In this document: one piece after another, positions 1 to 58,148 of the stretch
Layout: each line of letters starts with the position of its first letter
How positions within the stretch are numbered: the first letter of the stretch is position 1
Source of the DNA: an uncultured Bacteroidia bacterium
GTDB taxonomy: Bacteria; Bacteroidota; Bacteroidia; Bacteroidales; UBA932
NCBI GenBank assembly: GCA_902791945.1
Contig: CADAXR010000002.1
Coordinates: forward strand, 9 to 64,008
Length of the DNA: 64,000 nucleotides
Reading direction: 5' to 3'
Notes under the pieces: model-generated
Databases searched by the model: none
The model's input: only the letters and a program-made list of their open reading frames with translations
What the model was told of the DNA's origin: nothing
Program-made: the position numbers and the translations under genes

Positions 1-2030
1 TCCAGGAGTCTGACTTGTGGAGGACGTTGGTGTTGATGAGAAGGTTGTCGGTGCTGTCATCTATGGTAGCCTGGGTCAGGCGGAGGTTGCCGGACATATC
101 GCGGCCGGACTCGTTGGCGAGCCACCAGTAGTAATCGTAAGTCAGCGTATTATTCGCTTGTTTTGCACTGTGGACGAAGATGCTCCTCCGTTTCTCACTG
201 ACGGTGTAAGTTTTATTGGTAGTGAATTTGGTAAGGCCGGCCGGGGTGTCTCCTCCTGTGAAGATTGAGTAGAAGTCCGCAATCGTCGGCCACAGCCACT
301 GGGTCATATATCGGTCGAGTCCGGAGCCGTTATCCTCATCTTCATTGAATAATGAGTTATAAGAGAATGATCCGTAGAACAAATATTTATCCGTATTGAT
401 TGTCTTTCCGCTGCTCTCCCCCGGGTAACGGTTGTAAACATCCACGAAGAAGTTGGCCGGCCTGATCTCCCAGGACGTTCCTCTTCCTTCATTGGTATAG
501 ACGTGTACGGCAGTGTTGAATATCGCGCTATGTTTGTCTGAAGTGCTTCTTAGGAGGTCCTTGCGGTCATCCGAATTGACCCAGCTGCCGGGCAGATTGC
601 CGGAATCCAGGGAGTCCGACGCCGGGGGAACTTAAGGACCAGAACGGGTCTTCCGTCATATGCTTGTTGCCGAGCCAGGCGAGGATGCTGTTGAAACCGT
701 CGCCGGCAGTGTAGTTTTTATAGACGGAGTCTTCAAACAGGCCGTTTCCGCGGTATCCGCCGTCAAAGAAATTACCCTCCCTGCTTATAAGGTCTCCTGT
801 TTTGACCTTGTAGGGATCATATTGACTGATTTTGAAATTGATCGCCTGGGTGAATCCGCCCGCCCCTTCGAGCGTTACCGAAAACTGTCTGGTAGAAGTC
901 GTGGTCGAAGCCGTCGCGGTCGAAGGCACGCTGACGGTCAGTACATGATCCGTAAGGCTTGCGGAGACGCCGCTCATGGATACGCTCTTCAGGGAAACCT
1001 CATTCGGAGATTTGCCTATGACGTCGACATAAAACTTCTGGGTCGCGCCGCGGCCTATGTATTCCGTACTCCTCACGGTACGGTCACTTCTCTTCAGGTA
1101 GACCTCGGCATCGGTATAGTGCATGGATAGTTTGAAACCGGTCGGGCGCTCGTAGATTTTGAATACAAGTTCGGCCTTGACATCATTGTCCGCCTTGGAC
1201 CTTGCCACTACTTTGCATCCGTAGGTGCGGTAGGCAGTCGGCTCAAGGAGGCCGTCATCGCTGAGGTCGAAGTAGCTGGCGCCCTCGATGCCGATGAATT
1301 CAATCTCGTCGTCGGCTTCTTCCGGCTCGCCTTTGGCCTCCAGCTGGATGCTTTCGCCTACGAAGAACCTGTAGCTGTCTTCACTGTAGTGGATGGCGTC
1401 GCTCTCGTCGGGCTTCACGAGAGTGATTTTCGTGAAGGGCTGGGCCACCCGGAGGGTCGCGGTCGCGGGTTTATTGCCGTCCACGGAACGGGCGGTTATG
1501 GTCACCGTGCCACGGCTGACACCGGTTATGAGTCCGGAATCATCGATTCTCGCGATGTCGCTGTTGGAGGTCTCCCAAGTGACGTTGTGGTTGGTGGCGT
1601 TCGAGGGCTCGAAACGGACGGTGAAACGCGTCGTTCCGCCTACCTTGATGACGTCCTCCTCCGGGCTGAGGCTGATAGCGGTCACGTGGATTTCCTCGGC
1701 AATGACGTGGATGTTGCATGAGGCGGAAACCCCTCCGCAACGGGCGGTAATCTCGGCGTCGCCGACTCCGACGGCCTTCACGAGCCCACCCTCGACGCTC
1801 GCCACATTGTTCTTCGAACTCTCCCAGGTTACAGTCTTGTTCGTCGCGTTTGACGGCTCCACGGTGGCGTACAGCTGAAGCTCCCCGCCGATGGCCAGGG
1901 TCTCGGACGAATAATTCAGGCTGATGCCCGAGGGGGGTACATAGGTTGATTTATGAGTTGCGGCTTTCTTGCACCCTGCTACGGCCATCACGGCCAGGGC
2001 GGCAAATATGACTATAAGTAACTTCTTCAT
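1..2030 (-). pseudogene. Surface lipoprotein with tandem Big_2 (bacterial Ig-like) domains and a DUF1566-like C-terminal domain; one frame break; the 3' part runs off the window start
   Basis: Track ORF 567..2030 has a lipoprotein signal (..AVAGC) and repeated Ig-like segments (NKTVTWESS / HNVTWETSN). It stops at 567. A second minus-strand frame, open from ~631 to nt 1, continues the similarity to paralog 6974..8488 (NLPGSWVNSDD vs NLPSWITSNDE; YMTQWLWPTIADFYSIF vs YMTPWVLPTVHDFNSIF). The two frames overlap at a C5/G5 run (624..628). Confidence 0.6.
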
Positions 2031-2959: not shown

Positions 2960-3020
2960 GGCATATCCTGATTATGTTCCTCATCCCAACAAAGATATAA
3001 AAAAATAATCTCCCCTCCCC

Positions 3021-3118
3021 GGGCAAGGTCTCCTTTTAGGTGGCGGACCTTGCCCGGGTTTCTCCGCTGGAGGCCGTTCTGGTGGACAAGGTCCCGACCC
3101 TAAAAGGAGACCTTGCCC
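3021..3118. repeat. 98-bp compound palindromic REP-like element (left copy)
   Basis: gggcaaggtctccttttagg ... cctaaaaggagaccttgccc, with inner inverted GGACCTTGCCC / GGACAAGGTCC motifs. An inverted near-copy lies at 4518..4615. Confidence 0.85.
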
Positions 3119-4026
3119 GGTTTCAGTATTTCCGAGACCTTCTGGCGGGGAAGTTCAAAGGTCCTTGCCAGTTGCGGAACTGTGGTTTTGCTTGTGTGAA
3201 AGACATACGGCAGGAGGCGGACCTTCTTCTCCAGTGGCAGAGAGGAAATATCTGACTCGAACCACCTGTTGCTCAGATCGTTGACGCTCTTGTAGAACTC
3301 TGAATCGGGCAACATCCTTCTCGGCTGGTCCACGAGTTTCTGCTTCATCTCTGCCGAATTCTGACCGCCAAGTATTTTCAGAAAGAAACTCTGCTCGTTT
3401 TCAAAAACCTGCTCCAGGTATGCGTTGTCACAAAAACTGCCCGGAACCAGGTGGTCCTGCCTGTCCAGAAGCCACTTGACCCCCGAAAGTTTGTTTCCGG
3501 TATGCATCAACTCCCTTTTCTCCCTTTTGGACAACTCAGCCACACTTCGGCATCCTTCCTCCGGCACCACAGTGTTGAACATCGCACCATACCCGGACCA
3601 CCGATATTCATTGATGTTGCATCCGTTATCCAAGGCGTTTCTAGGGATATACGCAAGTGCATTCCTGACATACCAGTTGCTGTCCAGAAGGAGTGCCTTG
3701 ACATCCACGTTCTGCATCGTCTCACGCGCCGAATACTTTTTGCTGAACCACATCGAATAGACTTTTTTGACTTCCTCACCATATTTGCCGGCATCCGTCT
3801 GGGTTTTCGCAAGAACGGCAACGTGACAGTGATTCGAAACCACGGCATATATGATTACGATGACATTTTTCCTGAGAGCTGCGACGGCAATGATCTTCAC
3901 CATCGCATCATAGTCGTCATCATCCCGGCAAAGAATACAGTCCTCCATCCCCTCAAGGCTTATGTGAAAAGGATAGACCATCGCGAAACTCCCGTCAGGG
4001 AGCCTCCTTCGCACCACTCTGTTCAT
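3100..4026 (-). CDS. IS200/IS605-type Y1 (HUH) transposase-like protein, REP-associated (RAYT-like)
   Basis: 308 aa. It has an HUH-like motif (SNHCHVAVLA) and a downstream YIPRNAL segment resembling the Y1 catalytic-Tyr region. The gene is bracketed by the two 98-bp palindromic elements. Confidence 0.6.
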   Translation of the reverse strand: MNRVVRRRLPDGSFAMVYPFHISLEGMEDCILCRDDDDYDAMVKIIAVAALRKNVIVIIYAVVSNHCHVAVLAKTQTDAGKYGEEVKKVYSMWFSKKYSARETMQNVDVKALLLDSNWYVRNALAYIPRNALDNGCNINEYRWSGYGAMFNTVVPEEGCRSVAELSKREKRELMHTGNKLSGVKWLLDRQDHLVPGSFCDNAYLEQVFENEQSFFLKILGGQNSAEMKQKLVDQPRRMLPDSEFYKSVNDLSNRWFESDISSLPLEKKVRLLPYVFHTSKTTVPQLARTFELPRQKVSEILKPGKVSF

Positions 4027-4442: not shown

Positions 4443-4517
4443 TGAATTATAAAAAACAAAACTCAGATTTTTTTGTTTTTTATACCGATTAAGTCTTTTT
4501 TATAAGAATTTCACAGC

Positions 4518-4615
4518 GGGCAAGGTCTCCTTTTAGGGTCGGGACCATGCCCACCAGAACTGCCTCCAGCGGAGAAACCCGGGCAAGGTTTGCCACCTGA
4601 AAGGAGACCTTGCCC
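4518..4615. repeat. 98-bp compound palindromic REP-like element (right copy, inverted relative to 3021..3118)
   Basis: The middle segment (gtcgggaccatgcccaccagaactgcctccagcggagaaacccgggcaaggtttgccac) is the near reverse complement of the middle of the left copy. It has the same GGGCAAGGTCTCC termini. Confidence 0.85.
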
Positions 4616-4676
4616 GCTGTGAGGGGCGCAGAAGAGGGGGGAGGCAGTCGAGACGGAGGCGCAGAAGGTGGAAAAG

Positions 4677-6973: not shown

Positions 6974-8488
6974 ATGCGTCGTATTTTTTTAGTTTGGGCC
7001 GCGGCCTTTGCCGCAGTAATGTTACCGGTGTCCGGTTGTGACGGGACGACCGTGGATAATACTGAAGTGGTTGATCCGGAAGGCGGCGAAACCGGTGGCG
7101 AAACCGGAGGAGAAACCGGCGGCGAAACCGGCGGCGAGACCGGCGGCGAGACCGGTGGAGAGACCGGTGGAGAAGGCGGTGGAGAAACAGGCGGCGAGGG
7201 CGGTGAGGTTATCCCGGTGACGGAGGTCAACCTTTTGACCGTGGCGGGTTCCTGCGGAATTTCCGTCCCGAGAAACGCTCCGAGGGGCACCTACTATATC
7301 GGCGTCGGGGCGGAGCAGAAATTCAGGGTTGAAGTGAAGCCCTCGGATGCTCCCCAGGAAGTGACGATTTACGAACAACTGCCCGGAGCGGGCAAAGTGC
7401 GTTTCAGCCTCGACGGCGACATCCTGACGGCGTCGGTGCCCGCAGGGACCGAGGCCTCGAGGGGAACCAACAAGAAAACTTCCACGGTGAAACTTAAGAC
7501 CGGTGACGGCAAGGTACATTCGTTTAATTTTATCAACTGCGTCTATGACCCGTACCAGCCGAAGTTCGGCGACGGCATCACCCCGGAGGGAAAGATTATC
7601 GACAGCGGCTTCCGTGGCGGGGATATCTTTGAAGACCCCGTCAACCTTGGCGGCAACGATGTCTCCTGCATCATCGCCTATCTCGGAGAGGAGCACATGA
7701 CGGAGGACCCCTTCTGGGAACTGTATTTCAAGCCTTCGACCGGCATACGGTCCGCAGGAAAGGCTATCCACGGCATCGCCATCCCCGCCAATGTCAGCAA
7801 ACTCTACCGCACTTCCGCGCCTGACGGGGAGTACTACTACACCGACAGCAGCGACGAAAATTTCATAACAGAGTCGAATAACCTTCCTTCATGGATTACC
7901 TCCAACGACGAGTGGAAGAGTCTGCTATATTTCAGGGGAAAGCACTCCGCCCTGCTGAACACGTGCTGCCACGTGTACTGCAATGCCGGCCGCGGCAAGA
8001 GCTTCGAAACCCTTCCTTTCCTGTTTTTCGTGGAGGATGCCCTGAAAAAGCCCAGTCTTAACGAAAGCAACGAGATGAAGGACAGTTCCTATGAGCAGTT
8101 CCACACCAGCTTCGACGCTGCCGGCAACGGACTTAATGCAAGGAGCGTTGACGGGGGATCCCTCACCGGCGAATACATGACGCCGTGGGTGCTTCCCACC
8201 GTCCATGATTTCAACTCCATCTTCATCGGTAAGGTGCCGGCCAATGTCGTGAACACCAATGACAGTCCGGACGTAGTCGAACGATGCAAGGTCTTTTCAA
8301 GGTCGACAAGAGTTCTCGGTGGTTCCGGGCAGACCTACGAAGGCATCAGATGGTGGCTCTCCAACGAGAATCCTTTTCAGCACGGACTCTGCCAGGGCAA
8401 CATCACACACAATGGAAATGTCTTTTCTGTGTACTATACCGTAGGACACACCACCAGGGCTTACGTCCTTCCGATAAGGTATTTCTAG
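6974..8488 (+). CDS. Surface lipoprotein with a (GGET)n linker and DUF1566-like C-terminal domain; paralog of 1..2030
   Basis: 504 aa. It has signal plus Cys (VSGC) and a GGETGGETGGET.. repeat. The shared block DPY..G.GI..EG..D.GFRGG..FEDP....IIAYLGEEHMTEDPFW is followed by WVLPT..F..IF / RWWLSNE / YVLPIRYF, which resembles the DUF1566 pattern. Confidence 0.6.
   Translation: MRRIFLVWAAAFAAVMLPVSGCDGTTVDNTEVVDPEGGETGGETGGETGGETGGETGGETGGETGGEGGGETGGEGGEVIPVTEVNLLTVAGSCGISVPRNAPRGTYYIGVGAEQKFRVEVKPSDAPQEVTIYEQLPGAGKVRFSLDGDILTASVPAGTEASRGTNKKTSTVKLKTGDGKVHSFNFINCVYDPYQPKFGDGITPEGKIIDSGFRGGDIFEDPVNLGGNDVSCIIAYLGEEHMTEDPFWELYFKPSTGIRSAGKAIHGIAIPANVSKLYRTSAPDGEYYYTDSSDENFITESNNLPSWITSNDEWKSLLYFRGKHSALLNTCCHVYCNAGRGKSFETLPFLFFVEDALKKPSLNESNEMKDSSYEQFHTSFDAAGNGLNARSVDGGSLTGEYMTPWVLPTVHDFNSIFIGKVPANVVNTNDSPDVVERCKVFSRSTRVLGGSGQTYEGIRWWLSNENPFQHGLCQGNITHNGNVFSVYYTVGHTTRAYVLPIRYF
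7082..7207 (+). repeat. In-frame 12-nt tandem repeat (about 10 units) encoding GGET/GGEG
   Basis: ggcggcgaaacc ggtggcgaaacc ggaggagaaacc ggcggcgaaacc ggcggcgagacc ... read directly from the sequence. Confidence 0.9.
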
Positions 8489-20840: not shown

Positions 20841-21479
20841 TTAAACGTTCAGCTCAAAGCGGACATTTTCTTCGCCGGCCAGAAGCTTGCGCGTGTTCTC
20901 GATGTTCGTCTCATATATGTGGACGTTTCCGAGGTTCAGCGTTATTGACTGCAAAGGCAAGTCAATTTGCCGGGAAATGAGATATAAATGGTAAATATCA
21001 GAAGGAAGACCAAGATTTGCGTCACTGCTCCGCTGGTACGCGGAAATAACCAGCTCGCCGCAATCTATCTGGAACTGTACGAGGCTGAGGCAAGGCGCTT
21101 GATTCGTCTCTGCGTCCGTGGAGCCAAGGAACAGGACGTAATTCTTGGAGTTCCGTTTCTCTGCGTTTATCTTCCGGATCAGCCCGGGAAGTTTCTCAAA
21201 GTAGGTGGGATAACTGTTTATGAGGATTGAGCCGCAATAATCCCACCAGCTGATTCCGATGTCGCGGTATTTCTCAACGTTTCTTTCGCCCTGCATAAAG
21301 AGTTCCAGCTCACCGCGCAGTTTTTTTCGGGCGATGGAATGGCTCTCGAAGATGTCGAGCAAATCCGCGGGCGTCATCGACATCTGTTGATTCAGAAGGT
21401 ACTTGATGTTGCCTTTCTTGTTTGTCTGGGTCTTACCTTCGGCAAGAATCTTCCCCAGGATACTGTAATACTGATTCAT
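20841..21479 (-). CDS. Thymidylate-synthase-family (ThyA-like / pyrimidine C5-modifying) enzyme, short form
   Basis: 212 aa. It aligns with ThyA landmarks: MNQYYSILGKILAEGKTQTNKKG (cf. [23 protein letters not shown]), ELELFMQGERN, the catalytic-Cys block APCLSLVQFQ, YQRSSDANLGLP and GNVHIYETN. The RTGTGT phosphate-binding segment is replaced. Confidence 0.65.
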   Translation of the reverse strand: MNQYYSILGKILAEGKTQTNKKGNIKYLLNQQMSMTPADLLDIFESHSIARKKLRGELELFMQGERNVEKYRDIGISWWDYCGSILINSYPTYFEKLPGLIRKINAEKRNSKNYVLFLGSTDAETNQAPCLSLVQFQIDCGELVISAYQRSSDANLGLPSDIYHLYLISRQIDLPLQSITLNLGNVHIYETNIENTRKLLAGEENVRFELNV

Positions 21480-24716: not shown

Positions 24717-25067
24717 TTAGAGGTTTGCGATAGCGGTGCGGTACTGCTCAAAGTCGATTTCCGGGGCGGTCCCGCCGGCATAGCGGACGGCAAGGTCAGC
24801 GCGGATGTCATCTTCCACCTTTTCGGGCGTCGGAATCTCCGGATAAACCAGGATGGAGAAGGCCACAAGGTCCGTGGGGACCTCGCGGTACTGGACCTCT
24901 TCACCCTCCTGGGGCTGGCCGCGGCGTCCCTTGCGGGAACCCTGGACCGGGACTTTGTTAACAACAGGTACGAAATCAAACCGTACAATACAACCCTTTT
25001 TGCGACCGGTGTTGAATTGTTCAACGGCGACGGCTTTGTCAGCCGCGCAATAATCTCGTGCTGTCAT
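24717..25067 (-). CDS. Phage baseplate-module protein, unknown function
   Basis: Start taken at internal Met (MTARDY..). The longer track ORF would overlap the RT by 150 nt. Confidence 0.3.
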   Translation of the reverse strand: MTARDYCAADKAVAVEQFNTGRKKGCIVRFDFVPVVNKVPVQGSRKGRRGQPQEGEEVQYREVPTDLVAFSILVYPEIPTPEKVEDDIRADLAVRYAGGTAPEIDFEQYRTAIANL

Positions 25068-26322
25068 TCGGCAATTTGTGTTTGTTGAAGGATTTGTGTC
25101 TTTGCTTGCGGAGCGCAGTCTTGATACGCTCACGGTGTTTATACTTCTTTTTGACGGCGAGCTTTGAAAAGTCGCCAGTGGAATAGACATACTTGAACCA
25201 GGCCGGGCTTATCATACCGATAAAGCGGCGGCGCAGGCCGTATTCGTTGAAGTGGGCCATAAGGCCCAGATAAGAGTTGATGCAGCTGACGAAATACTCC
25301 ACCTGTTTCCTCATCCGGTCCGGGTGGCTTTCCGCGAAGCGGTTAAAGAAGAAAACGCGGTCATAGGCAGCGCCTACAGTGCGGTTCGACAGGTAGAGCC
25401 GGTCAAACTTCACTACGCCGCCGACCCACTTGACGCCCTTTGTAAAGTGCTGTATCTGGTATTTCTTCGGGTTGATAGTGACCTCTGCCGTCTTCCACAG
25501 GTATTCCCGCAGAATGGGCATTGCAAGCAGCATCTTCTGCTCATCCTCATCGACGGCCGCGCAGTCATCCACGTAGCGGTCGATAGAGATGCCCAGGGTC
25601 TCCTGCAAGTAATGGTCGGCATCGTTCAGAAGGAAGTTGGCCACCAGCTGGGAAGGGAGGTTGCCGATGGGCAGGCCGTAGCCATCCGGGACGGTGAACA
25701 GGCTTTTGTTTGCCGGCAGGCTGTCCCACTCCGCAGGATCCCCGCGCAGGACACAGTTCTTTTCCGGCGCATTAAGCAACGTGACGCGGCAGAGGTAGAG
25801 CAGCGTATCAAGGTCATCCTCTTTATAGGATTCTTTCAGGAACGCGCAGAGTTTATCGCATACCAGCAGGCGGTTAATCGACATAAAAAAGCCCTTCAAA
25901 TCCCATTTGAGCACCCAGCAGTCGCGGGTGTAATCCTGGGACTTGGCTTTTATGAGGTCGCGGAGATAGTAAATGCTGTTGAGCGTTCCTTTATCCTTCC
26001 TGCAGTTGAAGGACGCATCGATGAAGATCTTCTCAAGCAGGGGCTCAATACGGAGGGCAATCCAATGATGGACTATGCGGTCACGGAAATCAGCAGCGAA
26101 GACTTCGCGGTCAACAGGGCGGTGAACAACAAAAGCGATGGATTTGCCTGGCTCATAGACGGCTCCGTTTATCTCATCCCTGAGCGCTACCAGGTTCTGC
26201 ATATAGTGCATATCAAAGGCTACACAGCTGGGCGTGCTGGCCTTGTTGCGCTTGCAGTCCTGGTATGCGTCCAGGAGACTTGAAAAACTTATGCTGATAT
26301 TTCCCATTGTTGTGTTTTCCAT
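25039..26322 (-). CDS. DGR reverse transcriptase
   Basis: It has the DGR-type motif LPIGNLPSQ and the catalytic RYVDDCAAV. The TR lies immediately upstream. Start taken at MENTTMG; the first 28 codons of the track ORF are the translated TR. Confidence 0.9.
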   Translation of the reverse strand: MENTTMGNISISFSSLLDAYQDCKRNKASTPSCVAFDMHYMQNLVALRDEINGAVYEPGKSIAFVVHRPVDREVFAADFRDRIVHHWIALRIEPLLEKIFIDASFNCRKDKGTLNSIYYLRDLIKAKSQDYTRDCWVLKWDLKGFFMSINRLLVCDKLCAFLKESYKEDDLDTLLYLCRVTLLNAPEKNCVLRGDPAEWDSLPANKSLFTVPDGYGLPIGNLPSQLVANFLLNDADHYLQETLGISIDRYVDDCAAVDEDEQKMLLAMPILREYLWKTAEVTINPKKYQIQHFTKGVKWVGGVVKFDRLYLSNRTVGAAYDRVFFFNRFAESHPDRMRKQVEYFVSCINSYLGLMAHFNEYGLRRRFIGMISPAWFKYVYSTGDFSKLAVKKKYKHRERIKTALRKQRHKSFNKHKLPNDSTRLLRG

Positions 26323-26336
26323 CTTCAAATGAAATT

Positions 26337-26424
26337 CGGAGACCGCCCGCACGTAGTTGTTGTTGTTACGATTGTTGTTGTTCGTGTTACCATTGTTGAG
26401 GTTCACGTTCCACGCGCACCACTC
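26337..26424 (-). repeat. DGR template repeat (TR), 88 nt
   Basis: Aligns without gaps to VR1 and VR2. It has 29 adenines on the coding strand, mostly in AAC/AAT codons (..NVNLNNGNTNNNNRNNNNYVRAVS). Confidence 0.9.
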
Positions 26425-26535
26425 CGTGCCCGGTATTCTGCGGTTGCCTTGTTCTTAACTCTAAATGAGAGTACGCAGACCTTTTCATTAAGAAAATTGC
26501 TCCCGCCCGGAAGCCGTGGCCGCCGGGCCACCCGC

Positions 26536-26937
26536 TTACACACTCGTAATCATTCTGGCTGTGGCTTTTCTCCAGCCGCCTAATTGTTGGGAAATATCAG
26601 TCATAAGTTCAGCTATATTCGTTTGTTTCTGCAACGGCAGCACCTGATGCCTGTTACAAAGGGATATGTATGTATTGAGCACCGTGAATTGACTGAGCGC
26701 CCTGTCAAGGTGCGCAAGCCTTGTTTTAGGCGCTTTCTCATCATAAGCATAGACAATCCTTGCCAGAAGGTCCATTGCTACGTCCAGCGTCTTTTCCCAC
26801 AGCACACGGCGCCATTTGACCGGCACGTTGTCGGCCTGGGCGCACAGGGTGTCTGCGAGCTCGAAGGCCCTCTTGTAAACGCGCTGGTCGGCGGCTGTCT
26901 GCTGAGTTCTGTTGCTGTCTGTCATACCCGGATGCAA
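26536..26937 (-). CDS. avd: DGR accessory variability determinant (Avd)-like four-helix-bundle protein
   Basis: 133 aa, basic and helical. It sits between the target gene and the TR-RT, as in canonical DGR cassettes. Confidence 0.65.
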   Translation of the reverse strand: MHPGMTDSNRTQQTAADQRVYKRAFELADTLCAQADNVPVKWRRVLWEKTLDVAMDLLARIVYAYDEKAPKTRLAHLDRALSQFTVLNTYISLCNRHQVLPLQKQTNIAELMTDISQQLGGWRKATARMITSV

Positions 26938-27017
26938 AGTTACTGATTTTCTGATTCTCCCAAAAATTTTTCGCTCCGCGTCCCTCCTAAGAGAGACGCG
27001 GAGGAAAGGCTGAAAGA

Positions 27018-28151
27018 TTAAGAAGAATAATCATGAAAAGCGGAGACCGCACGCACGAAGCCGCGGTCGCTACGACTGCCGTTGCCCGTGCCACCATCGC
27101 CGAGGCGCACGTAGCACGCGCACCACTCATCATACTGGGTGGATGACCAATACCAGTTATTATCGAGCAGGTCAAACTCAAGCCCACCTTCATCATTGGC
27201 ATCTGTCATAATAGCGTTGATTGCAGCCTTATTCAGATACATCAAGTACAGTTGGCCGGCAGACGGAAGGAACAGCTGCCTGTTATACGCTGCCCAGACA
27301 TTGGCGCAATACTCAGCCGCTTTTGCGTCCCGGCAGAACTCCAGAATCTTTGCGGTGTTAAGATTCCCGTTATAATCTGCGCGTGCAGCAGCTTGAGCCG
27401 CTTCCCAGTCCTCGCAAGTGTGATCATTGAATGCCGGAAGTGCAGGGATAAGCTTGCCGTAATAGCGATTACCCACCCAAGGCATCGTGCTGTCTGCCTT
27501 GGTGTTTTGGTCAATGGCAAAGGCCGTTTCGGCCGTTGCCACAAGAATACTGTCGTAGTAATCTTCATCAGTGGTTTCCCCCTCCTGCATATCCCACTCC
27601 TGGGCGGAAGAGTGGTCCGAACTGTATCCACTTGTTACATAAGGGACATACCTATATTGATCGGTATCCTCGTTATAGTAACCTACGCGGCCGAGCATAA
27701 ACACCCCGATAGGGAAATGCCAAAGCTCAATAGTCCTTGCATCCTGGCAGGCCTCGTAGGTAAGCTGGAAGGATGCGGAAAGGCCGGTAAGCTTTGAGAA
27801 TACAGCATACTTGAATCCCTTGTAAACCTCAAAGGATACTTCGCCGTTTTCATCCACTTCCACCTCCTTACGGGGCACCGCGAAGTTCGGCACGCCACTA
27901 TTGCAGAAGATGTCGATGTAAACCTTGGCGCCGGCCACGCTGACGCGCTGGGTGCCATCGTAGGCATTGACCTTGACGGTGACACGTTCCGTCTCCAAGT
28001 TGCCGAGGGCCTCAATTATTTCGCCCGAAGCCTCCACCAGGGCGAGCATCGTGCCGCCTACCATCTGAGCGGTCACGCTCTTTGCCATAATCGCGTCGCG
28101 GATGGTAATCGCAGTCTCGCGATGGGCAGCGGTGTTAAATTCCTGTTTCAT
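27018..28151 (-). CDS. DGR target protein 1 (tail-module, DUF1566-like/CLec-type C-terminal variable domain)
   Basis: 377 aa. The C-terminus reads FLPSAGQLYLMY..NNWYWSSTQYDEWCACYVRLGDGGTGNGSRSDRGFVRAVSAF and contains VR1. Confidence 0.85.
   Translation of the reverse strand: MKQEFNTAAHRETAITIRDAIMAKSVTAQMVGGTMLALVEASGEIIEALGNLETERVTVKVNAYDGTQRVSVAGAKVYIDIFCNSGVPNFAVPRKEVEVDENGEVSFEVYKGFKYAVFSKLTGLSASFQLTYEACQDARTIELWHFPIGVFMLGRVGYYNEDTDQYRYVPYVTSGYSSDHSSAQEWDMQEGETTDEDYYDSILVATAETAFAIDQNTKADSTMPWVGNRYYGKLIPALPAFNDHTCEDWEAAQAAARADYNGNLNTAKILEFCRDAKAAEYCANVWAAYNRQLFLPSAGQLYLMYLNKAAINAIMTDANDEGGLEFDLLDNNWYWSSTQYDEWCACYVRLGDGGTGNGSRSDRGFVRAVSAFHDYSS
27041..27128 (-). repeat. DGR variable repeat 1 (VR1)
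   Basis: 88 nt aligned to the TR by hand gives 22 mismatches. 20 are at TR adenine positions and 2 are at non-adenine positions. Confidence 0.9.
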
Positions 28152-49950: not shown

Positions 49951-50802
49951 TTAATCAGCGTTTTCGATGGTCTTTGCGGCGTGTACCAGACGCTTGACGC
50001 GGCGCAGGTCACAATCGCTGTCCTCCGCGATGCGGTTAATCTCCGCGCGGGCGGTGACGCCGTTTGCGATACAGACGGCCTCGATGTCCCCTTTGCAGAC
50101 GACCGGCATAGGGATGAACTTGCGGCCCACGCGGCTGTATATCTCGCGGAACCCCCGGCGATTATTACGGACACCGCGGAGGACCCGTTTCTCAAGGAAC
50201 TGGGTTGCGCACATTACGATCCCGCAGTGGTCTTCCAGCTGGTTGTACAGGGTGATGAAGAAAAGAAGGGTCTGGTCGCTGAGTTTGTCTGCCTCATCGA
50301 GAACCAGGAGAACCCCATCACGGCGTTTGAGAGTATGCACGGCGTCAGCCACCATTTCAGCAACAGTGTTCCCTTCGGCGTCGATGCCCAGCGTGCCCAG
50401 AAGCTCCGAAAGGAACTGCTTGCGGTTCCAAAACTCCGAGCAGGAGAGTACAAGGACATTGGGGTTGCACTCTGCGTATGCCTTCACGGCCTGAGACTTT
50501 CCGCATCCGGCGTCACCGGTGACGGCAAACACCAGGGCATTTTCCTGGGCATCGGTGAGGACGTCATACATCCGGTTGTATCCCTCTGTCTGCACAACCA
50601 CCCACTGGCGCGGGTCGTATCCGACGGCGGCTCCCACAATGCGCCACATATCTTCCGAAATGAGATCCCAATTCCCGTTAAGGATCTGGCTTAGGGTCGC
50701 GCTGCTTACTCCGATGACGGAAGCCGCCCGGTTTTGGCTTCCCTGGTTGGCGGCAAAAGCCCTGGCTTTCTCCGCAATGGATTGTTTTTCTGACTTTTTC
50801 AT
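49951..50802 (-). CDS. MuB-like transposition ATPase
   Basis: 283 aa. It has an N-terminal HTH (SVIGVSSATLSQILNG), Walker A (TGDAGCGKSQ) and Walker B (LLVLDEADKL). It lies directly downstream of the transposase. Confidence 0.75.
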   Translation of the reverse strand: MKKSEKQSIAEKARAFAANQGSQNRAASVIGVSSATLSQILNGNWDLISEDMWRIVGAAVGYDPRQWVVVQTEGYNRMYDVLTDAQENALVFAVTGDAGCGKSQAVKAYAECNPNVLVLSCSEFWNRKQFLSELLGTLGIDAEGNTVAEMVADAVHTLKRRDGVLLVLDEADKLSDQTLLFFITLYNQLEDHCGIVMCATQFLEKRVLRGVRNNRRGFREIYSRVGRKFIPMPVVCKGDIEAVCIANGVTARAEINRIAEDSDCDLRRVKRLVHAAKTIENAD

Positions 50803-50817
50803 ATTAACAAAACTTGA

Positions 50818-52833
50818 TTAGTATAATTCTGCGGTTTTCATCTTACGCTGCGGAGTTTCCGGCACGGGCACTTCGATCGGGACGGGCTCCGCCTGGGGTT
50901 GTACCTCCGGGGCAGTAAGCCGCGCCTCATTGCGGCGGCTCTTGTGCTGTCCTTCGCTGTCGCACAGGCATACACGGCGCAGCATATCCAGCTGGGGATT
51001 CTTATGGAAGAGGTCTATAACCGTGTCGCTGGCGTCGCTTATGGTCTTCACCACGTGCGGCTCAAGCACCTTGGCGTTGAACTCCCGGACGCGGGCAAGC
51101 TGCTCCGCATCGCCGGGTTTACGGTCAGCAAGGGCCATCGGTTGGACATACTTTTCTTCAAGCAGGAATTTCAGAGAACCGTCCTCATTGACGGCAAGGA
51201 CCTTGGCAAGATTGTCAGGATCGTACTTCACGTTCCAGCGGATATGTGAGTATTTCCGGAAGTTCATATCAAAGCAGTCGTAAGAGCGCTTTGCCCCGAG
51301 CAGCCGGATATTCAGGCCGGAGCCCTCAAGGGCATTCTTATACCCGGTTTCACTGCCGAAAGTCAGAAGGTACTGCTCATCCGAGAGAGGCAGGCGGCGG
51401 TCTTCCGCGACCTTATCCCACCCGGCTACGTACTTCTCGCGGGCCATTGCGCGCATCCCCTCGATGAGCCTGACAACCTGGGCTACACATTCCTCGCGGG
51501 TAGGGAAAGACTTGCGGATAAGGTTGAGCGCATCGGCATTGGGCTGCTTGTTTTTGTCTGAGGTGATGCCGAAGCCGGCCCAGTTCGGAAGCAGCTGGCA
51601 CATCTTGTTGAAGGAAAGGAAAAATCTTTCGACCGGCTTGCTCTTCGCGTTCTTGACCTTCGCCGGGACTACTTTTGCGCCGATGGCGCTGTAAACCGGC
51701 ATCATTGTCTTCATCGCGAAATGGTCGCTCTGGATCTGGTTGGCGCGATAGCGGCGGCCGAAGAGCTCCGCCGTGTGGTTGGCTGCGTTGCGGAGGGCGG
51801 CTGTAATGAGGGCGGAATCCTCCTGGTCGCCGATGGCATAACCGATGGGATAACCGCAGAAAGGATCCAGGACAATTTCAAGGGTAAGGCGGTTACTGTA
51901 GGAAGTGACGGTGCGGCCGTCTTTTTTCGTCTCGGTCTTCTGATACAGAAGTTCAACATCCCAGCCGTCAAGGCTCCACATATACAGGGGCGCGGTGGGT
52001 GCGCTGCGCTTGACCTGCATGCTGCGCTGGTTATAGAACTCCGAATTACCCAGGCGTCCGGCGGCGGTCTCAAGATCGTATTTGCGACGCCAGGACTTAA
52101 CGGCCGGTGCTGTGACTTTCTTCCAGCCTAATTTTTCAGCCAGGGCGTTGTATATCATTGCAATCTGGCTATTGTCAAGGTTCCGGTGGTCGGCAAGCAG
52201 CTTGACCACCACGGCCTCCTGTTCTTTGGTGACAATCTTCGCCGCGTTGGCATTGGCGAATTTGGCGGAAATTAGTACCTCATAGTTGGCGGAGCCTCCG
52301 CGGAAGAAATCATTGTATTTGTCCTGCAGGCGACGGGCATTCTCCGGAAGGCTGTTGGGGAACCGGTCAGCGATACGGGGCAGCGCGGCCGCAGCACGTT
52401 TCCAGAAATCGCAGCGCTTGACACGCGGCTTGCTAAGCTTGGCGTGCTGGCTGTCGGACCGGGTGAGAATCAACCGGAAGGCCGCGAGGATGGAGGCATT
52501 GTTCGTGTACTCCGCCTGTTTCTCATAGTCCAGACCGCGCACACCATCGATGCGGTAATCCGCATAGAATTGGGCGGCAAATCCGTCCGGCTCGATGGTG
52601 TCGATAAATTCCTTACTCTCTGCCTGGGCCTTGAGGTCGGGTGTCCGCCTGTACACCTCAATCTTTATCTTGGCGGGCATCGTGTCCACCACGAAGAGAG
52701 CCGGGGACCCTGGGCAAGCTCTGCGGGCTTGCTGGATCTTGCCCCGCTGCACTCCGTGCTGGATTGCCTTCATCGACAGGATGCCGGCAAGGTCCTCGTA
52801 GGTCGCACAGTATTTTCCGTTATAAACTTCCAT
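50818..52833 (-). CDS. Mu-type DDE transposase (MuA-like)
   Basis: ~671 aa from MEVYNGKY. The call rests on its size, its position upstream of the MuB-like ATPase, an integrase-like core region (..MWSLDGWDVELLY..), and the matching terminal repeats. Confidence 0.7.
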   Translation of the reverse strand: MEVYNGKYCATYEDLAGILSMKAIQHGVQRGKIQQARRACPGSPALFVVDTMPAKIKIEVYRRTPDLKAQAESKEFIDTIEPDGFAAQFYADYRIDGVRGLDYEKQAEYTNNASILAAFRLILTRSDSQHAKLSKPRVKRCDFWKRAAAALPRIADRFPNSLPENARRLQDKYNDFFRGGSANYEVLISAKFANANAAKIVTKEQEAVVVKLLADHRNLDNSQIAMIYNALAEKLGWKKVTAPAVKSWRRKYDLETAAGRLGNSEFYNQRSMQVKRSAPTAPLYMWSLDGWDVELLYQKTETKKDGRTVTSYSNRLTLEIVLDPFCGYPIGYAIGDQEDSALITAALRNAANHTAELFGRRYRANQIQSDHFAMKTMMPVYSAIGAKVVPAKVKNAKSKPVERFFLSFNKMCQLLPNWAGFGITSDKNKQPNADALNLIRKSFPTREECVAQVVRLIEGMRAMAREKYVAGWDKVAEDRRLPLSDEQYLLTFGSETGYKNALEGSGLNIRLLGAKRSYDCFDMNFRKYSHIRWNVKYDPDNLAKVLAVNEDGSLKFLLEEKYVQPMALADRKPGDAEQLARVREFNAKVLEPHVVKTISDASDTVIDLFHKNPQLDMLRRVCLCDSEGQHKSRRNEARLTAPEVQPQAEPVPIEVPVPETPQRKMKTAELY

Positions 52834-52929: not shown

Positions 52930-53658
52930 CTAAATATTCAAGCATAAATTCTGAAAAGCGGAGACCGCCCGCACGTAGGTGCCGTTGCCACGATCGTAGT
53001 CGCCCGTGAGACCACCGTTGAGGCTCACGAGCCACGCGCACCGGTCATTATCCTTGACGGCGATACTGGACCAATAATAACCCATTACGAGCGTAGGGGC
53101 GCCCATAGCCAGCAGGCATTTGTTGATTTCCTTGCGGTACTGGTGCATTATCTTTAACTGCTTTACCGTGGGGAGATCCCACTTGCCAGGGCGGATGTTG
53201 GCAGTCCCATATTTGCGGCAGAAGTCGGCCGCAGGAGACCCTACGAAGTTGTATTCTTCATCCCCGTCAGGGTCAATATAGATAAGGCCCCTGTTGGTCG
53301 CAATGGCGGCGTCGGTAGCTGCTTTACTGTCGAGGCTCTCGGTGTCGGTTATAAGCTTTGAGGAATCGCTTGACTGGCCCCACTGGGCAACCACCGTATT
53401 ATGGAGGCCGATGAGGAAGGCGGCATCTTCTGTAACGACTGCCACGCATTCCGGGTTGAGGTGTTTTTCAGTATCCCATTTATCAAAAGGGATAAGTTCG
53501 TGCTTGCCATAGTCTGGGCTATTTACACACCAAACGCCAATAGGGCGCTCGTTTGTGAATACGTCCGGGCCAAAGATACGGCGCAGGGCATCCTGCGTTT
53601 TCGGGTCATTCTCGCGGTAAATATCGCGGACCTGGGTTTCTGATAAGACCGTGACCAT
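52930..53658 (-). CDS. DGR target protein 2 (early-region, no signal peptide, DUF1566-like C-terminus)
   Basis: 242 aa. The segment KWDLPTVKQLKIM..YYWSSIAVKDNDRCAWLVSLNGGLTGDYDRGNGTYVRAVSAF contains VR2. Confidence 0.85.
   Translation of the reverse strand: MVTVLSETQVRDIYRENDPKTQDALRRIFGPDVFTNERPIGVWCVNSPDYGKHELIPFDKWDTEKHLNPECVAVVTEDAAFLIGLHNTVVAQWGQSSDSSKLITDTESLDSKAATDAAIATNRGLIYIDPDGDEEYNFVGSPAADFCRKYGTANIRPGKWDLPTVKQLKIMHQYRKEINKCLLAMGAPTLVMGYYWSSIAVKDNDRCAWLVSLNGGLTGDYDRGNGTYVRAVSAFQNLCLNI
52959..53042 (-). repeat. DGR variable repeat 2 (VR2)
   Basis: Gap-free alignment to TR positions 1-84 gives 17 mismatches, all at TR adenine positions (hand count). Confidence 0.9.
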
Positions 53659-53661
53659 AGC

Positions 53662-53922
53662 CTACTCGCTTTCTTCCATTGATTCAATGTAGGAGCGGTT
53701 GAGCGAGGCGCGGGCCTGGGATACCTCAACCTTAATGTCGTGGAGTTCGACCATCAGGTCCTCTTTCTTGCGGCGGATCTTCTCAAGCTCATCCTGATAG
53801 TTTCGCGTGAGGTTGAACTGGGCCAGTTTGAGGTCGTGGATGTTTGCCTGAATGCCCTGGACTTTCTTGTAATAGTCGGCGTTCAGCTGCGACATCTTCG
53901 CATCAAATTCTTTCTGTGTCAT
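53662..53922 (-). CDS. Small coiled-coil early protein
   Basis: 86-aa ORF. Confidence 0.35.
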   Translation of the reverse strand: MTQKEFDAKMSQLNADYYKKVQGIQANIHDLKLAQFNLTRNYQDELEKIRRKKEDLMVELHDIKVEVSQARASLNRSYIESMEESE

Positions 53923-54423: not shown

Positions 54424-54609
54424 TTATTTATCAGTATTAAAGTGTTTCGGAACCTCAACGCCGCCGCGCTGGATGGCACGCTTGCGGATCTTGCCGGACA
54501 CGCCGCCGGTATAGCGTCCGTTCAGGGCATTTCTGACTGTCGGCCAGGAAACTCTGAACTCTTTTCGCAGGGCTGATTTTTCGCCCGCCTTGACCAAAAT
54601 TTCAGACAT
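54424..54609 (-). CDS. Ner/Cro-like small DNA-binding protein
   Basis: 61 aa from MSEILVKAG. It is the first gene of the early operon, divergent from the repressor. The segment SWPTVRNAL is HTH-like. Confidence 0.45.
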   Translation of the reverse strand: MSEILVKAGEKSALRKEFRVSWPTVRNALNGRYTGGVSGKIRKRAIQRGGVEVPKHFNTDK

Positions 54610-54680
54610 ATTCGATTTCCTATAATAATTTTCGTAACTTTGTAACGCACCTTTCACTATGGAAAGCGATGTGCAAATAT

Positions 54681-54710
54681 ACAGAAAATCTGGAAAACAA
54701 AAACATTTTT
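54681..54710 (+). repeat. 30-bp direct repeat, copy 1 (repressor/early intergenic region)
   Basis: acagaaaatctggaaaacaaaaacattttt, identical to 54990..55019. Confidence 0.95.
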
Positions 54711-54740
54711 CAGTAAAAACTTCAGAATTTATGGATTTTT

Positions 54741-55484
54741 ATGGGTAAAGAGAGTATAAATAAGCGATTTTTAGAGGCCGTACAAGCCTTGATAGACCGA
54801 CCGCCAGGGCTTACCAAGTCTGCCATTGCGGACTCGTTGGGTATAAAGCCGTCTAAATTTACAGAGATTCTGAAAGAGCGAATGATGGCCGGCACTGATG
54901 CTCTTTCCCTTATAGTGGAGAAATATGGGGTTTCCGCCGACTGGCTCTTACGTGGGGAAGGGGAGATGTTTGTTACTCAAACTGATGGCACAGAAAATCT
55001 GGAAAACAAAAACATTTTTTCAAAAAAACTTATACCTCTTTATGACGATGCCAGCACAATAGGTGGGTATAATGACACCGTGGCTGATGTCAACACCCCT
55101 TCTGGGCGGGTCGCGGAGTGGATTGATGCAGGCGACTGGTTCCCGGAGGCCACGTCCGCCATCCGGCATTATGGGGACAGCATGGTAGAGTACCCGTCCG
55201 GGTCAATACTCGCGTTGAAAAGGGTGCAAGATCTGCGTCTTATCCTCAACGGCCGCAGTTATGTGATAGAGACATCTGAATTCCGTGTGACCAAGCAGCT
55301 GCAATACCACGCCGGGGATGACTTTATTATGGCCTACTCAAGCAATAGAGAGACATACCCGGACGGCACGCAGATACACTCTCCGATCACCATACCCCTT
55401 GAGTCAGTACGGAGTATTGACCTGGTACTGGGGTGCGTGCTTAAAGAGTACAGTAATGGGGCAATACCCATCATAAAACGGTAA
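54741..55484 (+). CDS. Phage repressor, XRE-type HTH plus S24 (LexA/CI-like) peptidase domain
   Basis: 247 aa. It has an N-terminal HTH (LTKSAIADSLGIKPSKFTEIL) and a C-terminal GDSMVEYPSGSILALK (S24 Ser motif). It is transcribed toward the prophage end, like Mu c. Confidence 0.8.
   Translation: MGKESINKRFLEAVQALIDRPPGLTKSAIADSLGIKPSKFTEILKERMMAGTDALSLIVEKYGVSADWLLRGEGEMFVTQTDGTENLENKNIFSKKLIPLYDDASTIGGYNDTVADVNTPSGRVAEWIDAGDWFPEATSAIRHYGDSMVEYPSGSILALKRVQDLRLILNGRSYVIETSEFRVTKQLQYHAGDDFIMAYSSNRETYPDGTQIHSPITIPLESVRSIDLVLGCVLKEYSNGAIPIIKR
54990..55019 (+). repeat. 30-bp direct repeat, copy 2 (inside repressor ORF, interdomain linker)
   Basis: Identical 30-mer; here it encodes TENLENKNIF. Confidence 0.95.
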
Positions 55485-56651: not shown

Positions 56652-58148
56652 ATGAAGGATTTTAGATCATACATTCTTAGTCTTTGTGGCAAGAAAGAAG
56701 GATGCGAGGTTGAATTCAAAAGCTCCAAGGGCGGTTTCCCGGGTACATTTTGGGATACATATTCTTCTTTCGCCAATACCGCTGGCGGAATCATCGTCTT
56801 GGGGATACGCGAGAAGGACAATCAGTTTTCCCTCGATGGACTCACGGAGGAGCAAGTTTATAAGTATAAAAAAATATTCTGGGATGGTGCGCATAATCCC
56901 CAGGTCGTGAACATTTGCCTGCTTCAGGAGACGGATGTTCTTGAAGAGGTGGATGGGGAGGCGCACTATCTTGTTATCAATATTCCCCGTGCAACTTTTG
57001 ACCAAAAACCCATCTATATAAAGGGGGAGCCGTTTCACGGCCATACGTTCCGCCGTAACCATGAGGGTGATTATTCATGTTCTGATGATGAAGTACGCCG
57101 AATGATGGCTGATTCCATAGCCCTTAGCTACGGTTTGGACCGTCGTGTCATAGAAGGTGCGACCATAGAGCGAGATTTAGATGCTGACACTGTCCGTCAG
57201 TATCGCAACGCATTCCGTTCTCGCCATGAAGGCCATCCATGGAATGATCTTTCTGATGCCGAGTTTCTCTCCAAGATAAAAGGTATTGCAAAAGATCCAC
57301 AGACCAATGAAGTCGGAATCACCGGGGCTGCCATCCTGATGTTCGGCAAACATGAGTCAATGCACAAGGCGGCGCCATATTTCTTTGTGGATTTTCGCGA
57401 AAAACTTAGCAGTAATCCCCGGGTTCGCTACACTGACAGGTATTATCCGGACGGGACATGGGAACCGAATCTCTTCCAGTTCTATAATCGTGTCTACAGG
57501 AATATGGACCAGGATATTCCGCACCCTTTCAAGTTGGACGCCAACATGCAGCGCATCGATGAGACGGCGGCAGATGAGGCCCTTCGTGAAGCCATCTGCA
57601 ATACTCTCATCCACTGCAACTGGGCTATGATGTCAGGAGTTGTTATAGAACGTTATCCGGACAGGCATGTCTTCATTAACCCCGGAACGATGCTTATCCC
57701 TATGGAAGATTTCTTCCATGGCGGAAAGAGCATTTGCCGTAACCCCTACCTTCAGGACATGTTCATAGCCATTGGACGTGGCGAACATCTTGGCAGTGGT
57801 GCGGACATCATTGAAAAGGGTTGGAAAGAGAATGGATGGCCAAATCCGGAACTAAAAGAGACATTCGGATCGCATACGGATAGCGTAGAATTGACGCTGC
57901 GTTTGGGGCCTGTTTCCGGACAAAACACAAATAGTGACAAGAAATGTGATAAGAAAAGTGTCAAGAAAACGAAGGAGAGGATCAAAGACATGATGAGAGA
58001 AGATAAGTATATCACCTTGTCTCAAATGGCAGACTCTCTGGAAATCTCAGTAAGTGGAGTGGCGAAATCAATAACAAGGATGCAGGGTCGGGGTGAAGTG
58101 ATTCGGCATGGTGCAGATAACGGCGGCTATTGGGAAGTTCTGAGGTAG
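56652..58148 (+). CDS. AlbA_2 (Schlafen-like) domain / HATPase_c_4 / C-terminal wHTH protein
   Basis: 498 aa. CEVEFKSSKGGFP..FANTAGGIIVLGI is the typical divergent-AAA/AlbA_2 opening. The C-terminal YITLSQMADSLEISVSGVAKSITRM is wHTH-like. Confidence 0.65.
   Translation: MKDFRSYILSLCGKKEGCEVEFKSSKGGFPGTFWDTYSSFANTAGGIIVLGIREKDNQFSLDGLTEEQVYKYKKIFWDGAHNPQVVNICLLQETDVLEEVDGEAHYLVINIPRATFDQKPIYIKGEPFHGHTFRRNHEGDYSCSDDEVRRMMADSIALSYGLDRRVIEGATIERDLDADTVRQYRNAFRSRHEGHPWNDLSDAEFLSKIKGIAKDPQTNEVGITGAAILMFGKHESMHKAAPYFFVDFREKLSSNPRVRYTDRYYPDGTWEPNLFQFYNRVYRNMDQDIPHPFKLDANMQRIDETAADEALREAICNTLIHCNWAMMSGVVIERYPDRHVFINPGTMLIPMEDFFHGGKSICRNPYLQDMFIAIGRGEHLGSGADIIEKGWKENGWPNPELKETFGSHTDSVELTLRLGPVSGQNTNSDKKCDKKSVKKTKERIKDMMREDKYITLSQMADSLEISVSGVAKSITRMQGRGEVIRHGADNGGYWEVLR

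Follow-up and report, generated by a model that had tools for sequence, protein, structure and literature searches.

The diversity-generating retroelement (DGR) of Bordetella phage BPP-1, an avd-TR-brt cassette acting on the VR of the Mtd gene, transfers the sequence of a template repeat (TR) to a variable repeat (VR) with adenine-specific changes by means of Avd and a reverse transcriptase (RT). The VR lies at the 3' end of a gene for a protein with a C-type-lectin (CLec) fold, the repeats end in a GC-rich element followed by an initiation-of-mutagenic-homing site (IMH in the VR and IMH* in the TR), and the TR is built of stop-avoiding AAC codons. All of these features recur in a Mu-like prophage carried by the 64,000-nucleotide stretch of Bacteroidales DNA (contig CADAXR010000002.1) that we have analyzed and refer to as the window. 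The subject of this report is one gene of that prophage, target 2, which is an open reading frame (ORF) for a protein whose C-terminal end is ...CAWLVSLNGGLTGDYDRGNGTYVRAVSAFQNLCLNI, together with the repeat near its 3' end, VR2. The window differs from BPP-1 in that one TR serves two targets, the second of which is 26.6 kb off in an early transposition operon, in that VR2 has no strong downstream hairpin, and in that the CLec domain is of the DUF1566/Lcl_C type (CLec2) and not of the Mtd type. We regard it as virtually certain that target 2 is an active second target of the DGR in the early operon.

Remote second targets as such are not new in kind. Wu et al. 2018 (NAR, PMC5758913) mention "many examples" of phage DGRs with an adjacent and a non-adjacent target in one prophage, within 50 kb of the RT, and this is the general layout seen here; the identity and the regulatory context of the second targets are not described there. 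Remote targets were undetectable by the approach of the metagenomic survey of Roux et al. 2021 (PMC8144416). The hankyphage is also a Mu-like phage of Bacteroidales in which a DGR in the tail region diversifies a tail-fiber-like CLec protein, but a single VR has been described for it (PMC6199706, PMC12135933), whereas the window has two. Searches of 50,697 phage records, a collection assumed to include the hankyphage, returned no close homologue of target 2 by tblastn and no DNA similarity to the early region by megablast, and by these searches the window phage appears not to be a close relative of the hankyphage. (The best of four weak CLec matches by tblastn, MT835523.1, proved to have an ordinary adjacent VR/TR pair and was set aside as irrelevant.) In Toutatisvirus (bioRxiv 10.1101/2024.10.15.618418), one TR likewise serves two CLec-type targets, a Hoc-like "tentaclin" and an Mtd-like receptor-binding protein, but both are read as virion or receptor-binding proteins and lie beside tail genes, whereas here the second target lies among early genes.

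Two further comparisons concern the kind of protein that is diversified. The C-terminal domain of Legionella Lcl (8q4e) and the DGR target LdtA belong to the same domain family as target 2 by profile and by fold, and the VR motif ...YVRAVSAF is common to target 2 and the CLec2 class of DGR targets, but LdtA is an exported surface lipoprotein and target 2 has no export signal. Cellular DGRs of cyanobacterial signaling proteins (PMC7517822) and of putative antigen sensors of multicellular bacteria (PMC10907252) provide a precedent for CLec domains that work inside the cell as sensors or binders and not as surface adhesins; their targets are large multidomain chromosomal proteins, with kinase or STAND NTPase fusions, whereas target 2 is a single-module phage protein of 242 residues that, unlike the antigen sensors, would be on the attacking side of a conflict. 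An earlier note on this DNA, made from the sequence alone, had called the role that it suggested for target 2 unusual for a DGR target. Remote second targets were in fact already known (PMC5758913), but the early-operon location does appear to be undescribed. In the searchable literature we came upon no account of an early transposase operon of a Mu-like phage that contains a DGR target, an absence that is no proof of novelty, and cytoplasmic targets have been proposed there for cellular DGRs (PMC7517822, PMC10907252), with no such proposal found for a phage early gene.

The principal evidence that VR2 is a product of the DGR is its relationship to the TR. When we recomputed the alignment, the cores of the two repeats (see Table 1) matched over 84 nt without a gap and with 17 mismatches, all 17 of them at TR adenines, just as the earlier note had reported. 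The TR span holds 28 adenines in 84 nt, and the probability of such a restriction arising by chance is 8.4e-11 (hypergeometric). Eleven of the substitutions were A to G, three were A to C, and three were A to T; none was found away from an adenine. VR1, which is located 704 nt from the TR, has 22 mismatches over the matching 84-nt span, 20 of them at adenines. With looser homology included, the repeat family of the window consists of three copies, all on the minus strand (26325-26432, 27029-27136, and 52947-53054), and we identify the 26.3-kb copy as the TR because it is A-rich and lies directly 5' of the reverse transcriptase gene. A 19-nt core at the 3' end of the repeat occurs exactly three times in the window, as compared with 0.02 occurrences expected by chance. 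A third VR in the window was considered and rejected, the 19-nt core being present only in the TR, VR1, and VR2.

The sequences that follow the repeats differ in the manner of a homing signal. After the common GC-rich GTGCGGGCGGTCTCCG, both VR1 and VR2 read GCTTTTCA, whereas the TR reads GAATTTCA. The earlier note had drawn attention to this difference between CTTTTCA in the VRs and AATTTCA in the TR, and we find its CT/AA component to be retained in relatives of the phage, including a distant one. The two flanks match the distinction between a putative IMH and IMH*. The end of VR2 is 26 nt from the stop codon of target 2.

VR2 is also conspicuously variable in nature, as judged by a search for the target-2 family that returned 53 relatives, with large 90%-identity clusters of 99, 102, 243, and 266 members. 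Alignments were made within five 90%-identity clusters, using up to 15 members of each. In these five clusters about 200 residues were almost invariant, as against 5-9 different amino acids at each VR-encoded position. The Thr (ACG) position varied from T to A and the Tyr (TAC) position from Y to F, S, or C, as adenine mutagenesis predicts. At the DNA level, close relatives differed from the window phage at 46-68% of the TR-adenine sites of VR2, at 2-5% of the non-adenine VR sites, and at 3-10% of sites elsewhere in the target-2 gene. A scan of IMG/VR with the family profile gave four loci, too few for pairing of TR and VR.

Comparison with individual relatives ties this variation to the TR. 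On scaffold_5390, the RT and TR (locus L008) and the target-2 gene (locus L013) are on one contig, about 27 kb apart. The TR of scaffold_5390 differs from that of the window at three non-adenine positions, and its VR2 has exactly those bases, whereas VR2 of the window has at those three positions the bases of the window TR. VR2 of scaffold_5390 differs from its own TR at 14 positions, of which all 14 are adenines. As it carries the marker bases of its own TR, VR2 must have been overwritten with sequence from that TR after the divergence of the two phages. The two-target layout is repeated, again with 26 kb between the parts, in a distant phage (GCA_965351815.1, contig CBDSLZ010000114, loci L014 and L015) whose target-2 protein (P0022) and RT are 47% and 63% identical, respectively, to those of the window. 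The TR of the distant phage is spelled differently, its mismatches fall at adenines in 20 of 21 cases in VR2 and in 16 of 17 cases in VR1, and the CT-versus-AA flank is kept. Thus, homologous phages do carry the second VR, and to judge from the repeats themselves VR2 is a genuine, actively diversified second target of the DGR. Two results named in the earlier note as refuting its reading, a VR2 that is the same across populations and substitutions outside adenine sites, were not obtained.

Two observations on the ends of the variable region may be recorded here. Directly 5' of VR2, at 53043-53048 on the minus strand, the window has GACCGG (Asp-Arg) and relatives have the TR-like GAGTGG (Glu-Trp); both states are found among close alleles (L001 and L013), and a similar NR/NW plus S/C pattern is seen in cluster 3. 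This dimorphism suggests a variable 5' cDNA junction, such as is reported for BPP-1. Two proteins of the family, P0067 in cluster 3 and P0095 in cluster 5, are frameshifted inside the VR and have aberrant C-termini, which could reflect either indels generated by the DGR or assembly errors in a polymorphic region.

Read in the frame of VR2, the TR encodes E W C A W N V N L N N G N T N N N N R N N N N Y V R A V S, and its mutable codons comprise 11 AAC, two AAT, one ACG, and one TAC, a composition that we recognize as the classic design of a DGR. From this sequence and the rule of adenine mutagenesis, the TR would permit about 3e16 protein variants (~15^13 x 16) without a stop codon. In relatives, too, avd is followed by the TR and then by the RT. 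Avd, whose relatives are called at 129 amino acids, has an uncertain start, and a difference in the called start probably explains why an exact look-up of the window Avd gave no match. A scan for sigma-70 promoters and for terminators gave counts at or below the shuffled expectation and is uninformative for Bacteroidales; the Bacteroidetes consensus was used instead. That consensus, a -7 box with an upstream TTTG, comes from published work on Bacteroides promoters, and the sites that match it here are candidate promoters. It has eight matches in the window as compared with 0.72 expected, and the -7 box of the match upstream of avd is kept in L008 (TACCTTTG) and in L014 (TATCTTTG). Thus avd, TR, and RT may form a transcription unit of their own, apart from the late operon and possibly active in lysogens. 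Hairpins equivalent to that downstream of VR1 occur in L008 (z -2.5) and in L014 (z -4.0), whereas the stem found 3' of VR2 in the window is a mere 4 bp long and no hairpin was found in the distant relative L015.

Target 2 consists of a helical N-terminus (residues 1-35), a beta-rich subdomain (about 36-135), and an Lcl_C/DUF1566 C-type-lectin-like domain (about 140-237) that contains VR2. Lcl_C (PF07603) matches it at E 2.4e-7 and 31.5 bits, which is under the gathering cutoff of 34.9; the same domain is precomputed for 51 of the 53 homologues. Target 2 is thus a divergent member of Lcl_C by fold, though not formally by its own score. The earlier note had proposed a search for a CLec/DUF1566 fold by structure prediction, and such a fold was indeed found. 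An AlphaFold2 (AF2) model built on 26 sequences had a mean predicted confidence (pLDDT) of 84, and Foldseek matched it in the PDB to 8q4e (E 3e-5), to a Bacteroides fimbrial tip protein (4eps), and to CLecs of snakes and natural killer cells. An hmmsearch against PDB sequences also gave 8q4e, at E 7e-6. Neither target 2 nor the small early ORFs could be named by function from Pfam, NCBIfam, or PHROGs, and the MuA-like protein, which has no Pfam match, was named no further than "transposase".

Residues 70-237 of target 2 are homologous to residues 200-375 of target 1 (hhalign probability 99.7%, E 8e-26). By this alignment target 2 is paralogous to the last ~170 residues of target 1 and lacks the fiber-like N-terminal ~200 residues. 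It has a private N-terminus of about 70 residues and neither the helices nor the beta-sandwich domains of target 1, a protein whose gene has those of the baseplate hub and the tape measure as neighbors and whose AF2 model has N-terminal domains that match tail-fiber, tail-collar-fiber, and carboxypeptidase-regulatory-like domains. (The target-1 model is poor in the VR region, with pLDDT below 40, and was used for the N-terminal domains only.) Among 1.84 billion representative proteins, the first 140 residues of target 2 were found only in 12 clusters of stand-alone proteins of 180-294 amino acids, and no fusion of this segment to a long fiber was found. Neither a signal peptide, nor a lipobox, nor a transmembrane segment was recognized in target 2, and an alternative upstream start that would yield a signal peptide is ruled out by an in-frame stop directly upstream of the start codon. 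The contrast that the earlier note had drawn with target 1 in this regard does not hold, as neither a signal peptide nor a transmembrane segment was recognized in target 1 either. Moreover, the absence of a signal peptide cannot separate a cytoplasmic from a virion role, because virion proteins need none.

The target-2 scaffold is under purifying selection. Across the family 27 residues are invariant, and the ratio of nonsynonymous to synonymous polymorphism (pN/pS) of the scaffold outside the VR is 0.14 in comparison with L001 and 0.48, on only 15 changes, in comparison with L013. The flanking genes have ratios of 0.03-0.08, so that the scaffold is 2-8 times more relaxed than they are.

Target 2 lies between the Ner-like gene and the gene for the MuA-like transposase. 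The order given in the earlier note is thus confirmed, except that "Ner-like" describes the position of the first gene, whose product has a weak helix-turn-helix (HTH) match (GntR, E 0.01), corresponds to phrog_16858 of unknown function, and is called at 61 amino acids in a relative. The leftward string of genes continues through MuB to Gam (PF07352, E 2e-37), and its intergenic gaps are 2-96 nt. No convincing terminator was found between target 2 and MuA, and the -7 box at 54674..54681 belongs to the only two-element candidate promoter on the minus strand between 49.9 and 54.76 kb. Because it is packed into the leftward early string, target 2 is likely to be co-transcribed from the early promoter, and by analogy we infer that its transcription is early and repressor controlled. 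The prophage has its left end near 56,083, where homology with relatives breaks off, and its right end below 21,043. This gives a phage of about 35 kb in which some 3 kb separate VR2 from the left end.

Table 1. Positions of the two targets, the DGR cassette, and the early genes in the window
Feature	Position	Strand	Remarks
DGR reverse transcriptase	25039..26322	-	Start uncertain; listed ORF extends to 26406 across the TR; thousands of RVT_1 homologues
TR core	26337..26420	-	A-rich copy, directly upstream of RT; looser homology 26325-26432
Avd (accessory variability determinant)	26536..26937	-	PF22296 bAvd E 1e-9; phrog_3206 "Avd protein of DGR" E 9e-12
Promoter consensus TTTG-N18-TAACTTTG	26935..26964	-	Bacteroidetes type; directly upstream of avd, after VR1 hairpin
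GC-rich hairpin, 13-bp core stem	26969..27007	-	~28 nt 3' of VR1; z -3.3
Target-1 gene, 377 aa	27018..28151	-	Baseplate/tail module; N-terminal helices, beta-sandwich domains, CLec domain
VR1 core	27041..27124	-	3' end of target 1
MuB-like AAA+ transposition protein	49951..50802	-	AAA_22; phrog_296 "DNA transposition protein" E 3e-53
MuA-like transposase, 671 aa from ATG	50818..52833	-	phrog_310 E 1.8e-41; starts 96 nt downstream of target 2
Weak GCCC/GGGC 4-bp stem-loop	52920..52930	-	Just 3' of target-2 stop; z -0.9, no better than shuffles
Target-2 gene, 242 aa	52930..53658	-	VR2 at 3' end
IMH-like 3' end of VR2	52952..52974	-	GC-rich GTGCGGGCGGTCTCCG (same in TR), then CTTTTCA
VR2 core	52959..53042	-	Last ~28 codons before C-terminal tail of target 2; looser homology 52947-53054
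Three small early ORFs, 98, 76, and 86 aa	53662..54479	-	Between Ner-position gene and target 2; gaps 2, 27, and 3 nt
Ner-position small HTH gene	54424..54657	-	First gene of leftward string; probably 61 aa from 54609
-7 box TATATTTG	54674..54681	-	TTTG 16 nt upstream; repressor/Ner intergenic; candidate early promoter
Divergent repressor	54741..55484	+	HTH_19 plus S24-like C-terminal domain; phrog_4 E 8e-16

This arrangement is a conserved one. The order repressor, Ner-like gene, small ORFs, target 2, MuA, MuB, Gam was found at about 17 loci, some of which have one extra small ORF between target 2 and MuA. The hosts are Alistipes, Cryptobacteroides, Paludibacteraceae, Bacteroidaceae, and unclassified Bacteroidales of human and ruminant guts. 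The target-2 proteins of these loci are 41-91% identical to that of the window, and MuA, downstream of target 2, is 62-99% identical; Portal_Mu, Phage_Mu_F, and Mom were found in relatives. At none of the loci was target 2 seen in a tail module. The one exception to the linkage with MuA is locus L016 (JAFPWX010000022.1, 3854-4708, from a goat abomasum Bacteroidales metagenome-assembled genome), where a 52% identical homologue with a hypervariable VR is carried by a non-Mu phage; it is preceded by a primase/helicase-like gene of 834 codons and a DNA methyltransferase gene and followed by a RelE/YafQ-like ORF. The target-2 family is thus not tied to MuA, yet its neighborhood in L016 is non-structural too.

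Two features of the early region set the window apart or may bear on its control. The 86-aa ORF directly upstream of target 2 (53662-53922, minus strand) encodes a coiled coil; the close relatives L001 and L013 lack it, and it is an insertion into the early string that is specific to the window. A 42-nt direct repeat with copies 90% identical (54681-54722 and 54990-55031, plus strand) has one copy in the repressor/Ner intergenic region, overlapping the candidate early promoter, and the other within the repressor gene, where it encodes part of the linker that joins the HTH to the C-terminal domain; the duplication may be related to an operator.

How might such a system work? We propose that RNA of the TR is reverse transcribed with adenine-specific errors and that the cDNA replaces any repeat that ends in the common GC-rich element plus the CT-type IMH, that is, either VR1 or VR2. 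A single cassette in the tail/baseplate module (25.0-26.9 kb) diversifies two paralogous C-type-lectin proteins. Once the repressor is lifted, target 2 would be co-transcribed with the transposition genes, so that its product would be in the cytoplasm before the virion genes are turned on. As a soluble protein with a hypervariable site, it would there bind a ligand that itself varies. The timing, the site of action, and the ligand are proposals argued from gene position, whereas the targeting by the DGR, the continuing diversification, the fold, the conserved position, and the purifying selection are shown by the data. We give about even chances to the statement as a whole, namely that target 2 is both an active second target and a protein with a non-virion, early intracellular role. 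Our leading guess for the ligand is a host factor or a component of host defense; the specific proposal that target 2 binds host defense or other variable host factors, suggested by gene position, we rate as rather unlikely. In its most specific form, which we likewise consider rather unlikely, target 2 would be an early cytoplasmic, DGR-programmed "intracellular antibody" whose specificity is re-randomized against variable host proteins, such as defense sensors and effectors or nucleoid and transposition host factors. If true, the protein would mirror, on the offensive side, the DGR-diversified antigen sensors that bacteria have been proposed to use in defense, and it would be kept beside the transposase across a family of transposable phages of Bacteroidales.

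Several points weigh against the proposal as a whole. About 206 of the 242 residues of target 2 match the distal tips of annotated tail fibers and stand-alone phage DUF1566 proteins in BFVD (for the tail-fiber matches, E 1e-12 and TMq 0.63 over 206 columns), and such fiber tips and phage DUF1566 proteins serve to bind receptors. Other phages are known to have small adhesins with genes of their own; the conserved cysteines C44, C147, C181, and C207 would also fit an extracytoplasmic lectin; and the early timing of target 2 rests on analogy with phage Mu. Finally, VR2 lacks a strong downstream hairpin like that of VR1. The downstream hairpin is said, from the 2011 work of Guo et al., to be a cis-element that aids homing in Bordetella phage BPP-1. 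Such hairpins are not universal among DGRs, and a strong one is evidently unneeded for efficient homing at VR2.

The first of these points leads to the alternative that survives best, in which target 2 would join the virion as an accessory adhesin: although encoded away from the tail module, it would be a further receptor-binding protein that docks via its short N-terminal helices on the fiber or the baseplate, so that the phage would display two independently diversified lectins for breadth of host range. Besides the structural resemblance to fiber tips and stand-alone phage DUF1566 proteins, this would suit the paralogy of target 2 with the tail-fiber-like target 1, the documented occurrence of two virion targets of one phage DGR in Toutatisvirus (bioRxiv 10.1101/2024.10.15.618418), and published surveys, in which the targets of phage DGRs are for the most part tail structure proteins (PMC8144416). 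The gene, however, is found upstream of MuA in the early operon at about 17 loci and never in a tail module, its product has no fiber shaft or beta-sandwich domains, its N-terminal half is never fused to fiber proteins, and in a non-Mu phage its neighbors are a primase and a methylase. We consider an accessory adhesin possible but not probable.

An improbable alternative is that target 2 benefits the lysogen, or excludes other phages, at the cell envelope by receptor masking or adhesion, is expressed in the lysogen by leaky or independent transcription, and has no part in the lytic program. Bacterial DGR targets of the DUF1566/Lcl_C type, such as Legionella LdtA, are indeed surface proteins (PMC5758913), and with its own promoter-like site the avd-TR-RT unit could run in lysogens. 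But target 2 has none of the signals for export or membrane insertion that were sought, and the in-frame stop directly upstream of its start leaves no place for one; the gap of 3-24 nt to the preceding ORF is too short to hold a separate promoter; and the divergent repressor is expected to shut off the operon to which the gene belongs, on that strand.

We also think it quite improbable that target 2 is a passenger, that is, a duplicated CLec module with a retained IMH that is diversified as a by-product of the DGR and has no selected function. In favor of this reading, the scaffold is 41-47% identical where MuA is 62-68% identical, its pN/pS is 2-8 times that of the flanking genes, frameshifted VR alleles exist (P0067 and P0095), and relatives of the hankyphage type do without a target-2 gene (PMC6199706). 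Nevertheless, an intact ORF has been kept in one and the same position through deep divergence and in several families of Bacteroidales, pN/pS is well below 1, 27 residues are invariant in the family, and the IMH is conserved. Lastly, the resemblance between VR2 and the TR might be put down to chance, to ordinary recombination or gene conversion involving VR1, or to an assembly artifact. This alternative has in its favor only the paralogy of VR1 and VR2, and we reject it, as all VR2 mismatches are at TR adenines (P 8e-11), VR2 tracks the marker bases of its own TR, and many independent assemblies show the two-target arrangement.

Other features of the window lie at or beyond the ends of the prophage. 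At the right end is a divergent gene for a thymidylate-synthase-like protein of 212 amino acids (20841-21479, minus strand; Pfam E 2e-20, far under NCBIfam cutoffs). The gene is present at the end of the related scaffold_5390 phage as well, and in the more distant relative L014 a homologue of Mom occupies this end; the gene is probably phage borne and may have a function in nucleotide or DNA modification. Just outside the left end, 56652-58148 (plus strand) encodes a 498-aa protein with Schlafen AlbA_2 and HATPase_c_4 domains. Elsewhere, 100-nt inverted repeats (3020-3119 and 4517-4616, 94% complementary and 1397 nt apart) bracket ORF 3100..4026 (minus strand) for a 308-aa IS200-like Y1 transposase (PF01797, E 6e-5), with a further 42-nt inverted pair at 4511-4622. 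A 12-nt tandem repeat at 7058-7213 (plus strand) encodes (GGET)n just after the lipoprotein-like signal of a 504-aa host protein (ORF 6974..8488), the C-terminal region of which resembles that of the Big_2 protein of 567..2030, with which it shares an HMTEDPFW motif.

DGRs of phages have almost always been read as host-range devices that diversify tail fibers. Here, in abundant transposable prophages of gut Bacteroidales, a family keeps a hypermutated gene of lectin fold fixed to the early transposase operon. If target 2 acts inside the cell, DGRs would serve phage functions beyond adsorption, possibly including counter-defense, and the protein would offer a testable system in the form of a 242-aa binder with about 1e16 natural variants on a defined scaffold. 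Even if it is a second adhesin, the case shows that two independently evolving specificities 26 kb apart can be maintained by one TR.

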